This document shows positions 22,894 to 28,085 of a DNA stretch of 64,000 bases, piece after piece. Within the stretch, counting starts at the first letter, position 1. Every line of letters starts with the position of its first letter. The stretch comes from Escherichia coli. GTDB lineage: Bacteria > Pseudomonadota > Gammaproteobacteria > Enterobacterales > Enterobacteriaceae. The notes under the pieces were generated by a model, which worked only from the letters and a program-made list of their open reading frames with translations, had not been told where the DNA came from and searched no databases. The stretch lies in assembly GCF_003334305.1 (NCBI RefSeq), contig NZ_QOWS01000008.1; one strand, given 5' to 3'. The position numbers and the translations under genes were made by a program.

Positions 22894-25437
22894 ATGAGCA
22901 AAGTCAGACTCGCAATTATCGGTAACGGTATGGTCGGCCATCGCTTTATCGAAGATCTTCTTGATAAATCTGATGCGGCCAACTTTGATATTACCGTTTT
23001 CTGTGAAGAACCGCGCATCGCTTATGACCGCGTACACCTCTCGTCTTACTTCTCTCACCACACCGCCGAAGAGCTGTCGCTGGTGCGCGAAGGCTTCTAC
23101 GAGAAACACGGCATCAAAGTTCTGGTCGGCGAACGCGCTATCACCATCAACCGTCAGGAGAAGGTGATTCACTCCAGCGCCGGGCGTACCGTTTTTTATG
23201 ACAAGCTGATCATGGCGACCGGTTCCTACCCGTGGATCCCGCCAATCAAAGGTTCTGATACTCAGGACTGCTTTGTCTATCGCACCATTGAAGACCTCAA
23301 CGCCATTGAATCCTGCGCCCGTCGCAGCAAACGCGGTGCCGTTGTTGGTGGCGGCCTGTTAGGTCTGGAAGCCGCTGGCGCGCTGAAAAACTTAGGTATT
23401 GAAACCCACGTTATCGAATTTGCCCCTATGCTGATGGCGGAACAGCTTGATCAGATGGGTGGCGAGCAGCTGCGTCGCAAAATCGAAAGTATGGGCGTGC
23501 GCGTTCACACCAGCAAAAACACCCTTGAGATTGTGCAGGAAGGTGTCGAAGCGCGTAAAACCATGCGTTTTGCCGACGGCAGCGAGCTGGAAGTTGACTT
23601 TATCGTCTTCTCTACCGGTATCCGTCCGCGCGATAAGCTGGCAACCCAGTGTGGTCTGGACGTTGCTCCGCGTGGGGGTATCGTCATTAATGATTCCTGC
23701 CAGACTTCCGATCCGGATATCTACGCCATCGGTGAATGCGCAAGCTGGAACAACCGTGTATTTGGTCTGGTAGCACCAGGCTACAAAATGGCGCAGGTCG
23801 CCGTTGACCATATTCTGGGTAGCGAAAACGCCTTTGAAGGTGCTGACCTTAGCGCCAAGCTGAAACTGCTGGGCGTAGACGTAGGCGGTATTGGTGATGC
23901 GCACGGTCGCACGCCTGGCGCACGTAGCTACGTTTACCTCGACGAAAGTAAAGAGATCTACAAACGCCTGATTGTCAGCGAAGACAACAAAACCCTGCTC
24001 GGTGCGGTACTGGTGGGCGATACCAGCGACTACGGTAACCTGCTGCAACTGGTGCTGAACGCTATCGAACTGCCGGAAAACCCGGATTCCCTGATCCTGC
24101 CAGCACACTCTGGTAGCGGCAAGCCGTCTATCGGTGTTGATAAACTGCCGGACAGCGCGCAAATCTGCTCCTGCTTCGACGTCACCAAAGGTGATCTGAT
24201 TGCTGCCATCAACAAAGGCTGCCACACCGTTGCGGCGCTGAAAGCTGAAACCAAAGCGGGTACTGGCTGCGGTGGCTGTATCCCGCTGGTTACTCAGGTA
24301 CTGAACGCGGAACTGGCGAAACAGGGCATCGAAGTTAACAACAACCTGTGCGAACACTTTGCTTATTCGCGTCAGGAACTGTTCCATTTGATCCGCGTTG
24401 AAGGCATTAAAACCTTCGAAGAACTGCTGGCGAAACACGGCAAAGGCTACGGTTGTGAAGTTTGTAAACCAACCGTCGGTTCGCTGCTGGCCTCCTGCTG
24501 GAACGAATACATTCTGAAGCCGGAACATACTCCGCTGCAGGATTCTAACGATAACTTCCTCGCTAACATCCAGAAAGACGGCACCTACTCGGTGATCCCG
24601 CGCTCTCCGGGCGGTGAAATCACCCCGGAAGGGCTGATGGCGGTAGGTCGTATCGCGCGTGAATTTAATCTCTACACCAAGATCACTGGCTCCCAGCGTC
24701 TGGCGATGTTTGGCGCACAGAAAGACGATCTGCCGGAAATCTGGCGTCAGCTGATTGAAGCTGGCTTCGAAACCGGTCATGCCTATGCGAAAGCACTGCG
24801 TATGGCGAAAACCTGCGTGGGTAGCACCTGGTGCCGCTACGGTGTTGGCGATAGCGTCGGCCTCGGCGTGGAACTGGAAAACCGCTACAAAGGCATCCGT
24901 ACGCCGCACAAAATGAAGTTCGGTGTCTCCGGCTGTACCCGTGAATGTTCAGAAGCTCAGGGTAAAGACGTGGGTATTATCGCCACTGAAAAAGGCTGGA
25001 ACCTGTATGTTTGCGGTAACGGCGGCATGAAACCGCGTCATGCGGATCTGCTGGCAGCGGATATCGATCGCGAAACGCTGATCAAATATCTCGACCGCTT
25101 CATGATGTTCTACATCCGTACCGCCGACAAACTGACGCGTACCGCGCCGTGGTTAGAAAACCTCGAAGGCGGCATCGATTATCTGAAAGCGGTGATCATT
25201 GACGACAAACTGGGGCTGAACGCACATCTGGAAGAAGAGATGGCGCGCCTGCGTGAAGCGGTAGTGTGTGAGTGGACTGAAACGGTCAATACACCGTCCG
25301 CGCAGACTCGCTTCAAACACTTCATCAACAGCGACAAGCGTGACCCGAACGTACAGATGGTGCCAGAGCGCGAACAGCACCGTCCGGCAACGCCGTATGA
25401 ACGTATCCCGGTAACTCTGGTGGAGGACAACGCATGA
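22894..25437 (+). CDS. nirB: NADH-dependent nitrite reductase large subunit
   Basis: 847-aa ORF MSKVRLAIIGNGMVGHRFIEDLLDKSDAANFDITVFCEEPRIAYDRVHLS...; FAD/NAD dinucleotide folds, Fe-S and siroheme motifs. Confidence 0.97.
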   Translation: MSKVRLAIIGNGMVGHRFIEDLLDKSDAANFDITVFCEEPRIAYDRVHLSSYFSHHTAEELSLVREGFYEKHGIKVLVGERAITINRQEKVIHSSAGRTVFYDKLIMATGSYPWIPPIKGSDTQDCFVYRTIEDLNAIESCARRSKRGAVVGGGLLGLEAAGALKNLGIETHVIEFAPMLMAEQLDQMGGEQLRRKIESMGVRVHTSKNTLEIVQEGVEARKTMRFADGSELEVDFIVFSTGIRPRDKLATQCGLDVAPRGGIVINDSCQTSDPDIYAIGECASWNNRVFGLVAPGYKMAQVAVDHILGSENAFEGADLSAKLKLLGVDVGGIGDAHGRTPGARSYVYLDESKEIYKRLIVSEDNKTLLGAVLVGDTSDYGNLLQLVLNAIELPENPDSLILPAHSGSGKPSIGVDKLPDSAQICSCFDVTKGDLIAAINKGCHTVAALKAETKAGTGCGGCIPLVTQVLNAELAKQGIEVNNNLCEHFAYSRQELFHLIRVEGIKTFEELLAKHGKGYGCEVCKPTVGSLLASCWNEYILKPEHTPLQDSNDNFLANIQKDGTYSVIPRSPGGEITPEGLMAVGRIAREFNLYTKITGSQRLAMFGAQKDDLPEIWRQLIEAGFETGHAYAKALRMAKTCVGSTWCRYGVGDSVGLGVELENRYKGIRTPHKMKFGVSGCTRECSEAQGKDVGIIATEKGWNLYVCGNGGMKPRHADLLAADIDRETLIKYLDRFMMFYIRTADKLTRTAPWLENLEGGIDYLKAVIIDDKLGLNAHLEEEMARLREAVVCEWTETVNTPSAQTRFKHFINSDKRDPNVQMVPEREQHRPATPYERIPVTLVEDNA

Positions 25438-25760
25438 GCCAGTGGAAAGACATCTGCAAAATCGATGACATCCTGCCTGAAACCGGCGTCTGCGCGCTGT
25501 TAGGCGACGAGCAGGTCGCGATTTTCCGCCCGTATCACAGCGACCAGGTGTTTGCGATCAGCAACATCGATCCGTTCTTCGAGTCCAGCGTGCTGTCACG
25601 CGGGCTGATTGCGGAACACCAAGGCGAGCTGTGGGTCGCCAGCCCGCTGAAAAAACAGCGTTTTCGCTTAAGTGATGGCTTGTGCATGGAAGACGAACAG
25701 TTTTCCGTCAAACATTACGAAGCACGAGTGAAAGACGGCGTGGTGCAGCTGCGCGGTTAA
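25434..25760 (+). CDS. nirD: Nitrite reductase small subunit (Rieske-like)
   Basis: 108-aa ORF MSQWKDICKIDDILPETGVCALLGDEQVAIFRPYHSDQVFAISNIDPFF...; 4-nt overlap with the nirB stop. Confidence 0.95.
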   Translation: MSQWKDICKIDDILPETGVCALLGDEQVAIFRPYHSDQVFAISNIDPFFESSVLSRGLIAEHQGELWVASPLKKQRFRLSDGLCMEDEQFSVKHYEARVKDGVVQLRG

Positions 25761-25769
25761 TGTTTTAAC

Positions 25770-25794
25770 GGGAGGCGCAATGCCTCCCCTTTTT
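25770..25794 (+). terminator. Hairpin plus T-tract between nirD and nirC (intra-operon attenuator or terminator candidate)
   Basis: gggaggc-gcaat-gcctccc followed by cttttt, 10 nt after the nirD stop. Confidence 0.6.
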
Positions 25795-25886
25795 GCATGG
25801 TCCTGTAATGACCTTCGGTATATTGCAGGACATTTTTTAAACTTTTTGTTTTATTTTTTTGTTTTTATTTTTTAAAGGATAATCAA

Positions 25887-26693
25887 ATGTTTACAGACAC
25901 TATTAATAAGTGTGCGGCTAACGCTGCGCGCATTGCACGCCTGTCGGCAAATAACCCGCTCGGCTTTTGGGTCAGCTCCGCCATGGCGGGCGCGTATGTG
26001 GGTCTTGGGATCATCTTGATTTTCACGCTCGGTAATTTGCTCGACCCGTCCGTACGTCCGCTGGTGATGGGCGCGACCTTTGGTATCGCCTTAACGCTGG
26101 TGATTATCGCCGGTTCTGAACTGTTCACCGGACACACCATGTTCCTCACCTTTGGGGTAAAAGCGGGCAGCATCAGCCACGGGCAAATGTGGGCAATCCT
26201 GCCGCAAACCTGGCTGGGTAATCTGGTCGGTTCCGTCTTCGTTGCCATGCTCTATAGCTGGGGTGGCGGTAGCCTGCTGCCGGTAGATACCAGCATCGTT
26301 CACTCCGTCGCGCTGGCTAAAACCACTGCACCGGCAATGGTACTGTTCTTCAAAGGTGCATTGTGTAACTGGCTGGTTTGCCTGGCTATCTGGATGGCGC
26401 TGCGCACTGAAGGGGCGGCGAAATTTATCGCTATCTGGTGGTGTCTGCTGGCGTTTATTGCATCCGGTTATGAGCACTCCATCGCTAACATGACGCTGTT
26501 CGCGCTCTCCTGGTTCGGCAACCACAGCGAAGCCTACACGCTGGCGGGTATTGGTCATAACCTGCTGTGGGTGACGCTGGGTAATACTTTATCAGGTGCC
26601 GTATTCATGGGATTGGGTTATTGGTATGCTACGCCGAAAGCGAATCGTCCGGTTGCGGACAAATTTAATCAAACTGAAACGGCTGCCGGTTAA
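25887..26693 (+). CDS. nirC: Nitrite transporter NirC (formate/nitrite transporter family)
   Basis: 268-aa ORF MFTDTINKCAANAARIARLSANNPLGFWVSSAMAGAYVGLGIILIFTLG... Confidence 0.95.
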   Translation: MFTDTINKCAANAARIARLSANNPLGFWVSSAMAGAYVGLGIILIFTLGNLLDPSVRPLVMGATFGIALTLVIIAGSELFTGHTMFLTFGVKAGSISHGQMWAILPQTWLGNLVGSVFVAMLYSWGGGSLLPVDTSIVHSVALAKTTAPAMVLFFKGALCNWLVCLAIWMALRTEGAAKFIAIWWCLLAFIASGYEHSIANMTLFALSWFGNHSEAYTLAGIGHNLLWVTLGNTLSGAVFMGLGYWYATPKANRPVADKFNQTETAAG

Positions 26694-26711
26694 TTACTAA
26701 GGGGTTTTTAC

Positions 26712-28085
26712 GTGGATCATTTGCCTATATTTTGCCAATTACGCGATCGCGACTGTCTGATTGTCGGCGGTGGTGATGTCGCGGAACGCAAAGCAAGGTT
26801 GCTGTTAGACGCAGGCGCTCGCTTAACGGTGAATGCATTAGCGTTTATTCCACAGTTCACCGCATGGGCAGATGCAGGCATGTTAACCCTCGTCGAAGGG
26901 CCATTTGATGAAAGCCTTCTCGACACCTGCTGGCTGGCGATTGCAGCGACGGATGATGACGCGCTTAACCAGCGCGTCAGCGAAGCCGCTGAAGCTCGTC
27001 GCATCTTCTGTAACGTGGTCGATGCGCCGAAAGCCGCCAGCTTTATTATGCCGTCGATTATTGACCGCTCACCGCTCATGGTAGCGGTCTCCTCTGGCGG
27101 CACCTCTCCGGTTCTGGCACGCCTGTTGCGCGAAAAACTTGAATCACTGCTGCCGTTACATCTGGGCCAGGTAGCGAAATACGCCGGGCAATTACGCGGT
27201 CGAGTGAAACAACAGTTCGCCACGATGGGTGAGCGTCGCCGTTTCTGGGAGAAATTGTTTGTTAACGACCGCCTGGCGCAGTCGCTGGCCAACAACGATC
27301 AGAAAGCCATTACTGAAACGACCGAACAGTTAATCAACGAACCGCTCGACCATCGCGGTGAAGTGGTGCTGGTTGGTGCAGGTCCGGGCGATGCCGGGCT
27401 GCTGACACTGAAAGGACTGCAACAAATTCAGCAGGCAGATGTGGTGGTCTACGACCGTCTGGTTTCTGACGATATTATGAATCTGGTACGCCGCGATGCG
27501 GACCGTGTTTTCGTCGGCAAACGCGCGGGATACCACTGCGTACCCCAGGAAGAGATTAACCAGATCCTGCTGCGGGAAGCGCAAAAAGGCAAACGCGTGG
27601 TGCGGCTGAAAGGTGGCGATCCGTTTATTTTTGGCCGTGGTGGCGAAGAGCTGGAAACACTGTGCAACGCGGGTATTCCGTTCTCGGTGGTTCCGGGTAT
27701 TACCGCAGCTTCTGGTTGCTCTGCCTATTCGGGTATTCCGCTCACGCATCGCGATTATGCCCAGAGCGTGCGCTTAATTACCGGACACTTAAAAACTGGT
27801 GGCGAGCTGGACTGGGAAAACCTGGCGGCAGAAAAACAGACGCTGGTGTTCTATATGGGGCTGAATCAGGCTGCGACTATTCAGCAAAAGCTGATTGAAC
27901 ACGGTATGCCTGGCGAAATGCCGGTGGCAATTGTCGAAAACGGAACAGCAGTCACGCAGCGCGTGATTGACGGTACGCTCACGCAACTCGGTGAACTTGC
28001 TCAGCAAATGAACAGTCCATCGCTAATTATTATTGGTCGGGTTGTTGGCCTGCGCGATAAACTGAACTGGTTCTCCAACCATTAA
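26712..28085 (+). CDS. cysG: Siroheme synthase (uroporphyrinogen-III methyltransferase / precorrin-2 dehydrogenase / ferrochelatase)
   Basis: 457-aa ORF starting at GTG: [40 protein letters not shown]...; C-terminal SAM-methyltransferase domain ([18 protein letters not shown]). Confidence 0.96.

Follow-up and report, generated by a model that had tools for sequence, protein, structure and literature searches.

The spacer between nirD and nirC lies within the nirBDC-cysG operon in a window of 64 kb, which is the whole stretch of DNA that was analysed. The window is a piece of the E. coli chromosome. Around the spacer, 901 bases show 90–100% identity to 5426 of the 5426 complete E. coli genomes, in which nirB, nirD and nirC are annotated at this place. 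The entire spacer corresponds to positions 25761–25886 (126 nt), and the RefSeq annotation contains no feature within it. From the nirD stop codon towards nirC, the spacer is composed of hairpin 1, a C followed by T5, hairpin 2, an A followed by T6 at the start of the T tract, and the target of the small RNA NarS, in this order. The coordinates of the features are listed in Table 1.

Table 1. Features at the nirD–nirC junction (positions in the 64-kb window)
Feature	Position	Strand	Remark
nirB	22894–25437		
nirD	25434–25760	+	ORF; 100% identical to K-12 NirD
nirD stop codon TAA	25758–25760	+	
Hairpin 1, GGGAGGC-GCAAT-GCCTCCC	25770–25788	+	Conserved stem-loop, predicted operon-internal terminator; ortholog of the Salmonella nirD terminator
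'nirE' ORF of older literature	25780–25875	+	31 codons here, 33 in K-12
C + T5 after hairpin 1	25789–25794	+	Putative terminator U-tract
Hairpin 2, GTCCTGTAATGACC-TTC-GGT(A)TATTGCAGGAC	25800–25831	+	14 pairs, one bulge, then A + T6
U-rich leader	25833–25873	+	Six T-runs of 4–7, parted by single purines or AAAC; largely unstructured
NarS sRNA target, AAAGGATAATCAAAT	25874–25888	+	Spans the nirC SD AAGGA (25875–25879) and AU of the start codon
nirC (nitrite channel)	25887–26693	+	ATG at 25887; gene predicted to be under control of the spacer element
cysG	26712–28085		

The promoter scan gave no promoter-like site on either strand of the spacer. In the Rfam scan of positions 24500–27500 with permissive thresholds, no family was found at its gathering threshold. 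Two candidates from Rfam were rejected: sroE (RF00371) scored 22.3 bits (E = 0.052) against a gathering threshold of 51 bits, and IsrM scored 18 bits where 376 are needed. In the literature search on the nirD–nirC spacer and 'nirE', the paper on NarS by Wang, Chao, Matera, Gao & Vogel (NAR, 2020; PMC7038943) was the sole relevant match. The same spacer is studied there in the nirBDC-cysG operon of Salmonella.

Hairpin 1 begins at the tenth base past the nirD TAA. Its stem arms are located at 25770–25776 and 25782–25788, and the loop is GCAAT. The original prediction placed a GC-rich hairpin followed by Ts ten nucleotides after the nirD stop. The sequence there agrees with this description, and the folding energy of hairpin 1 is −13.6 kcal/mol alone and −14.7 kcal/mol with dangling flanks. 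Folded together with its flanks, it reaches −15.8 kcal/mol (z = −2.8), and 2 of 200 shuffled sequences folded equally well. According to the terminator consensus scan of 8.5 kb, hairpin 1 is the second of 18 terminator-like sites, where 9.8 ± 3.5 sites are expected. It was reported with eight pairs (one G-T), six of which are G-C. The stem expected of an intrinsic terminator is G+C-rich and 5–14 bp long with a short loop, and hairpin 1 has 7–8 pairs and a loop of 3–5 nt. Its U-run lies at the weak end of what is expected, with five T in the 8 nt past the stem. The run consists of just five U, and a C is located between the stem and the run.

In order to compare relatives, a data set of 80 species-level Enterobacteriaceae loci was collected by a NirD scan, and addition of K-12 gave 81 loci. 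nirC is located directly after nirD in 52 of the 81 loci, with spacers of 67–402 nt, and cysG is located directly after nirD in 29 (Enterobacter, Kluyvera, Lelliottia, Pseudocitrobacter and others). Hairpin 1 is found in Escherichia, Salmonella, Citrobacter, Klebsiella, Leclercia, Kosakonia, Siccibacter and Atlantibacter. Among the approximately 40 species carrying the hairpin, its start lies 5–10 nt from the nirD stop in nearly every case. On 32 distinct orthologous sequences, 94.9% of the cells pair, compared with 52–70% when the partner is slid. An exchange between A-U and G-C is observed in 11 of these sequences, and both sides of the outermost pair are changed in nine further sequences, mostly from G-C to C-G. 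The conservation with compensatory changes in about 40 species of Enterobacteriaceae indicates that hairpin 1 is more than a chance structure.

The T-runs of the spacer follow the presence of nirC. A hairpin with at least five T in the next 8 nt was found in 37 of 51 species with nirC and in 2 of 21 species without it (Fisher p = 9e-7, species taken as independent of phylogeny). A good T-run after the hairpin is lacking in 14 of the 51 nirC-containing species. Several genera keep the hairpin without the U-run, e.g. Lelliottia, Phytobacter ursingii and Kosakonia pseudosacchari. For the T-richest 30-mer, the median is 19.5 T in species with nirC and 14 T in species without it, and in about 31 of the 52 species with nirC this 30-mer ends 7–23 nt upstream of the nirC ATG. 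The T-rich tract is absent from the nirD-cysG spacers. The terminator U-run and the U-rich leader are mainly features of loci with nirC, and are largely lost where cysG comes straight after nirD. The middle of the spacer is a place of variable insertion. REP-like palindromes are observed there in Citrobacter, and an ERIC-like element in S. arizonae, C. youngae, Leclercia and Phytobacter. The ERIC-like insertion of S. arizonae is about 110 nt and is a dispersed repeat, present at a median of eight places per E. coli genome. The mid-spacer insertion is absent from S. diarizonae and K. grimontii. Where genera such as Salmonella and several Citrobacter have ERIC- or REP-like insertions, the T-rich part is found by the terminator, 80–200 nt from the SD.

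In Salmonella, an 'intra-operonic terminator' is located just past nirD, and consists of a stem-loop (−14.9 kcal/mol) and a uridine track (PMC7038943). Northern blots showed RNAs of nirBD (2.8 kb), nirC-cysG (2.5 kb) and cysG (1.4 kb), together with a weak full-length band (PMC7038943). The 5' ends of nirC are located in the uridine-rich region, no primary nirC 5' end was found, and inactivation of RNase E removes the nirC-cysG species (PMC7038943). In the Delta-sU mutant, in which the stem-loop and the U-track are deleted together, the nirBD mRNA is decreased and nirC-cysG is increased, and the repression of a nirC reporter by NarS falls from about 30-fold to about 5-fold (PMC7038943). As this deletion took the stem-loop and the U-track together, it cannot separate termination, RNA stabilization and Hfq binding. 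The U-track as an Hfq site is the authors' own unproven proposal, and Hfq-CLIP of aerobic growth has no peak in the spacer (PMC7038943). The mechanism tying the U-track to NarS is not established, according to the authors (PMC7038943).

Hairpin 1 of E. coli is identical to that of S. arizonae and S. diarizonae at 18 of 19 bases. The stem is the same, and one loop base differs. The S. arizonae hairpin folds at −14.8 kcal/mol, and the value published for Salmonella is −14.90 kcal/mol (PMC7038943). The agreement of these energies indicates that the two are the same element. Position, sequence and energy all agree in identifying hairpin 1 as orthologous to the intra-operonic nirD terminator of Salmonella. 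The original prediction took the hairpin for a partial intrinsic terminator or attenuator that sets NirBD against NirC and CysG. For the orthologous Salmonella element, essentially this role has been demonstrated (PMC7038943), and the prediction is largely right. The support from E. coli is weaker and points in the same direction: the stem is identical, and the number of RNA 3' ends falls from 586 to 24 across the junction (PMC7815308).

These numbers are derived from Adams et al. (2021), whose supplementary file 2 has an entry for a region of Rho termination at K-12 3497031 on the plus strand, 28 nt into nirC (PMC7815308). In the DirectRNA-seq data, untreated cells have 586 3' ends within 800 nt upstream of this position and 24 within 800 nt downstream; after bicyclomycin treatment the two counts are 920 and 149, and the Rho score is 3.95 (PMC7815308). 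The drop calculated from these counts is 24-fold untreated and about sixfold with bicyclomycin; each count is summed over 800 nt and so does not locate the 3' ends to hairpin 1 or hairpin 2. The counts indicate an accumulation of RNA 3' ends at the junction or ahead of it, with few inside nirC. The polarity at the nirD–nirC junction is partly Rho-dependent, and a drop of about sixfold remains without Rho. The curated aerobic Term-seq lists of the same study contain no 3' end in the spacer (PMC7815308), which probably reflects very low expression of the operon in air. The TERMITe supplements have no mention of nirD or nirC. A Rho-terminated antisense transcript (K-12 3496855, minus strand) crosses the region (PMC7815308).

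Hairpin 2, which the original prediction did not mention, is more stable than hairpin 1. It folds at −17.6 kcal/mol (z = −4.25), and none of 200 shuffled sequences folded equally well. The stable stem-loop is followed by a U-run within 0–2 nt, as expected from the sequence of an intrinsic terminator. The consensus scan did not report hairpin 2. The stated criteria of the scan do not provide for bulged stems, and the loop of the unbulged stem would exceed the limit of 3–8 nt. All 5426 E. coli genomes contain hairpin 2, at a median of one place per genome. Based on the latter value, a dispersed repeat of the REP/BIME or ERIC type was rejected; the ERIC-like segment from S. arizonae, with its median of eight places, served as the positive control. 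In E. albertii and further Escherichia lineages the stem persists, with a loop that is completely different. Across Escherichia, two pairs are changed on both sides, and 88.6% of the cells pair against 32–41% when slid. The two positions that are polymorphic within E. coli still pair (G.U to A-U, and C-G to U.G). According to the comparison of the spacers, hairpin 2 is Escherichia-specific, and occupies the middle of the spacer where other genera have REP- or ERIC-like insertions. Hairpin 2 is a putative second terminator or RNA-end protector.

The T-runs of the U-rich leader are located at 25833–38, 25843–47, 25849–52, 25854–60, 25862–66 and 25868–73. With 33 T in 44 nt, positions 25833–25876 form the T-richest and most strand-skewed 44-mer of the window. 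Considering both strands, the runner-up 44-mer reaches 25 T or 26 A, and the window averages 10.4 (s.d. 3.3). The oligo-T tract before nirC, which the original prediction called striking, is thus the extreme of the window. Its T-runs have centres spaced 5.5–9.5 nt apart, out of helical phase. Nine RNWUU matches are present in the spacer, about four times the density in the window, and in each genus compared it is the coding strand that is biased towards T. A structured or U-rich leader that controls nirC translation had also been suggested. The leader is indeed U-rich and lies directly upstream of the NarS site; the structured part of the suggestion failed, as the fold of 25832–25905 has −6.8 kcal/mol and z = −1.0, and 28 of 200 shuffled sequences folded equally well. 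The roles published for the U-track are processing by RNase E and, as a suggestion, docking of Hfq, not a cis-acting structure for translation (PMC7038943). A structured cis-regulatory leader of the riboswitch or thermosensor type was rejected on the same z value and the lack of any Rfam family at threshold. Pairing of the U tract with the SD region, as seen in one minimum-free-energy fold, was also rejected, since the isolated fold is no better than shuffled sequences. Based on the 5' RACE, rne-ts and deletion data of Salmonella, the U-rich leader is likely to serve as the entry or cleavage region of RNase E and as an Hfq-binding region.

NarS is cut from the narK 3' UTR and pairs with the SD region of nirC (PMC7038943). 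In Salmonella, the 14-bp duplex over the nirC SD has been validated, and according to the same authors the NarS-nirC pair is also present in E. coli RIL-seq data (PMC7038943). The target in E. coli, overlooked in the original prediction, is composed of the last 13 bases of the spacer and the first two bases of nirC. All 15 nt are complementary to the segment ATTTGATTATCCTTT of narS of E. coli K-12, where narS is annotated as b4813. This segment is single-stranded. The complementarity to the NarS seed is contiguous and overlaps the nirC SD, and by direct complement matching the 15-nt site is unique within the window. RNAduplex of the 3' part of NarS against the spacer gave only meaningless long-loop duplexes. 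The U-rich tract of E. coli adjoins the NarS target.

In the report of Li et al. (2016), a model terminator 8–9 bp past a stop codon was repressed nearly completely by the ribosome terminating there, and was fully efficient beyond about 30 bp from the stop (PMC4824070). The distances from the nirD stop are 9 nt for hairpin 1 and 39 nt for hairpin 2. According to these distances, hairpin 1 could be translation-sensitive and hairpin 2 could be insensitive. In the same window, the tsgA terminator is only 8 nt from its stop. Thus, the short spacing between stop and hairpin is in itself weak evidence, and the idea that this distance is a special design was rejected.

The nirD–nirC spacer of E. coli is probably a composite post-transcriptional module that uncouples nirC, and cysG driven from the nirB promoter, from nirBD. 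In the proposed mechanism, hairpin 1, for which orthology and covariation are observed, would act together with its U-run as a leaky intrinsic terminator and would also protect the 3' end, so that the nirBD mRNA is stable. In Escherichia, the stable and conserved hairpin 2 with its U6, 40 nt past the stop, would reinforce this as a back-up terminator or an exonuclease barrier. The read-through RNA would carry the 41-nt U-rich leader, which by its composition and lack of structure would be open to RNase E, and cleavage would yield a separate nirC-cysG mRNA. The leader is probably also a landing pad for Hfq. Then NarS, complementary to E. coli nirC as described above, would pair over 15 nt with the nirC ribosome-binding site, leading to a translation block and decay. 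The untranslated nirC RNA would be prone to Rho-dependent termination. In this scheme, termination at hairpin 1, RNase E cleavage and pairing of NarS are based on the Salmonella experiments and the orthology. We infer the step of hairpin 2 and the role of Hfq. Real termination at hairpin 1 or 2 in E. coli, beyond protection of the RNA end, and binding of Hfq to the E. coli U tract are presumed on the same footing.

A further elaboration, which we consider speculative and rather unlikely, is a two-stage terminator in Escherichia, in which a ribosome-gated hairpin 1 is combined with a translation-independent hairpin 2 that puts a ceiling on nirC-cysG transcription. Hairpin 1 could be gated by the ribosome finishing nirD, with read-through when transcription and translation are coupled and termination when they are uncoupled. 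Hairpin 2, 40 nt downstream and beyond the reach of the ribosome, would set the ceiling. Termination at hairpin 2 could produce an RNA of about 75 nt from the nirD 3' UTR, with two hairpins and a U-tail, an architecture like that of Hfq-binding sRNAs.

The hairpins may instead be RNA-stability elements only, which block 3'-5' exonucleases after RNase E has cut in the U-rich spacer. In that case hairpin 2 might cap the 5' end of nirC-cysG, and the polarity at nirC would result from decay and Rho. The dependence of the Salmonella nirC-cysG species on RNase E is in line with this explanation (PMC7038943), as is the position of hairpin 1 at 9 nt from the stop, where ribosomes repress terminators (PMC4824070). 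The same is true of the genera that keep the hairpin without the U-run, and of the part of the 3'-end drop that is Rho-dependent. However, the hairpin and the U-run occur together with nirC (37 of 51 species against 2 of 21). Such a co-occurrence is expected of a terminator, since an exonuclease block needs no U-run. Moreover, the Salmonella deletion raised nirC-cysG, as the loss of termination predicts (PMC7038943), and the 3' ends fall about sixfold (920 to 149) despite bicyclomycin. We regard a function in stability alone as somewhat unlikely. The U-rich tract might, on the other hand, be chiefly a translational enhancer of nirC through ribosomal protein S1, which would offset the absence of translational coupling across the 126-nt gap. 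Ribosomal protein S1 binds unstructured U- or AU-rich leaders just upstream of the SD and boosts initiation. The tract in E. coli is unstructured and ends at the SD, the T-richest 30-mer lies close to the nirC ATG (7–23 nt) in about 31 of the 52 species, and the nirD-cysG spacers have no such tract. An enhancer role is nevertheless doubtful, because insertions put the T-rich part 80–200 nt from the SD in genera such as Salmonella and several Citrobacter, and the Salmonella element still works. Deletion of the stem-loop and U-track in Salmonella also increased the nirC-cysG RNA (PMC7038943).

A role of the T tract as DNA, either as rigid or curved poly(dA:dT) that binds H-NS or Fis, or as a promoter or UP element for nirC or an antisense RNA, is very unlikely. 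The tract is the most A/T-skewed 44-mer in 64 kb, and the Rho-terminated antisense transcript at K-12 3496855 on the minus strand crosses the region. The promoter scan of both strands, however, found nothing in the spacer, and Salmonella has no primary nirC 5' end (PMC7038943). The spacing of the T-run centres (5.5–9.5 nt) is out of helical phase, and the coding-strand T bias in every genus fits better to a role at the RNA level. It is still more improbable, to the point of being negligible, that the spacer encodes a small protein. The 'nirE' ORF is reportedly listed among five nir ORFs in Peakman 1990 and Harborne 1992. It would start at the ATG at 25780 in the loop of hairpin 1 and use GGGAGG, an SD-like sequence upstream of the ATG, as the ribosome-binding site, giving 31 codons (33 in K-12). 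Against this, the start codon and SD are locked inside hairpin 1, the T6 and T7 alleles, the two common ones in E. coli, do not share the same frame, only six codons of the ORF are left in E. albertii, and no start codon is present with a CAAC loop, as in Salmonella and most Citrobacter. 'nirE' as a gene was rejected, as neither its reading frame nor its start codon is conserved among relatives.

The composite post-transcriptional module would explain how one FNR-dependent promoter gives much nitrite reductase and little nitrite channel NirC. It would also explain how an sRNA from the mRNA of the nitrate/nitrite antiporter switches off nirC alone, and the shut-off of nirC would limit the import of toxic nitrite during nitrate respiration. 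The element and its logic are already known and published for Salmonella (PMC7038943), and the E. coli version is the ortholog. The present analysis adds the Escherichia-specific hairpin 2, and ties the U-run and the U-rich leader to the presence of nirC. It also adds that E. coli has the same terminator and NarS site in a more compact form, with the U tract against the NarS site.

Compared with Salmonella, the E. coli element is located in the same operon directly past the nirD stop, with the loop GCAAT in place of GCAAC. In both, a U-run follows the hairpin, and a U-rich region and a conserved NarS target at the nirC SD are present. The energies are similar (−13.6 kcal/mol alone or −14.7 kcal/mol with dangling flanks for E. 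coli hairpin 1, and −14.9 kcal/mol for Salmonella). The ERIC-like insertion of about 110 nt in the Salmonella relative S. arizonae has no counterpart in E. coli, whose U-rich tract for this reason abuts the NarS site. The distance from the U-rich tract to the NarS site is 0–41 nt in E. coli, against about 200 nt published for Salmonella (PMC7038943). In addition, E. coli has an extra and stronger hairpin with its own U6 run between the terminator and the leader. The functional experiments on the terminator are those of Salmonella. In the case of canonical Rho-independent terminators inside operons, a G+C-rich stem-loop, a 3' U-run, partial read-through and stabilization of the upstream mRNA are shared features. 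The nirD–nirC element differs from them by the short U-run (five U after a C), by a hairpin within reach of the ribosome at the stop, and by the second hairpin and the 41-nt U-rich tract, which reach far past a normal tail.

The REP/BIME and ERIC repeats occupy the same spacer in other genera and also form stable RNA hairpins, whereas hairpin 2 of E. coli is single-copy. In the glmUS/GlmZ and iscRSUA/RyhB systems (cited in PMC7038943), as here, cleavage is located in the untranslated region between cistrons, the upstream fragment is protected at its 3' end, and the downstream cistron is the target of an Hfq-dependent sRNA. Unlike these systems, the protector in the nirD–nirC spacer is a terminator-like hairpin and not a REP element, and the sRNA stems from the mRNA 3' UTR of a functionally related transporter (narK).

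Drift is the usual fate of terminator loops. In hairpin 1, the terminator stem-loop located after the nirD stop codon, the G, C and A of the GCAAY loop (window positions 25776-25782) show conservation of 90% or more in the genera from Escherichia to Kosakonia and Siccibacter, and the other loop bases are largely conserved through the same genera. The NirD protein, unlike this loop, falls to 75-80% identity across that range.

The nirC gene is missing from 29 of the 81 species-level loci (L030-L037, L042-L059, L062, L067, L071, L077 and L078). In these loci cysG is the next gene after nirD, with a gap of about 137 nt, and the hairpin following nirD is usually unlike hairpin 1 and has no T-run.

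Among E. coli, the length of the T-run at 25854-25860 varies (loci L001 and L002). Of 5428 records, 3653 are exact matches to the K-12 allele, T6, and 1452 to the allele of the window, T7. The remaining records carry other variants, among them a 6-nt deletion in strain 1002W03, where the nirC annotation is also frameshifted. Using window 25400-26300 as the query against E. coli genomes, the nirD-nirC junction was found in two copies in at least one genome, and also on three plasmid records.

A Rho termination region has been reported on the minus strand at K-12 position 3496855 (Adams et al., 2021, PMC7815308, supplementary file 2). This position corresponds to window 25738, at the foot of the hairpin GCGTGGTGCAGCTGCGC within the 3' end of nirD. 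According to the same data (PMC7815308), the 3'-end reads there were 262 upstream and 12 downstream in the untreated sample, and 405 and 66, respectively, with bicyclomycin. Therefore, an antisense transcript runs through the 5' part of nirC and the spacer.

Coordinates of the antisense termination region and of narS
Feature	Position	Strand	Source or remark
Rho termination region at the foot of hairpin GCGTGGTGCAGCTGCGC	25738-25754	minus	PMC7815308 (supplementary file 2)
E. coli K-12 narS	L083 1838-2021		ERIC-like insertion after narK stop

The nirD-nirC spacer is an insertion hot spot (loci L008-L029, L039, L060 and L068). REP/BIME-like palindromes are present in the Citrobacter spacers, and an ERIC-like element, whose median copy number in E. 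coli genomes is 8, is present in those of S. arizonae, C. youngae, Leclercia and Phytobacter. Every one of these insertions lies between the terminator and the nirC Shine-Dalgarno (SD) sequence, with which the small RNA NarS pairs. In E. coli K-12, NarS itself contains an ERIC-like insertion directly after the narK stop codon, in agreement with the 170-nt NarS insertion reported by Wang et al. (PMC7038943). Thus, one repeat family interrupts the sRNA gene of E. coli and, in Salmonella, the spacer that holds the target.
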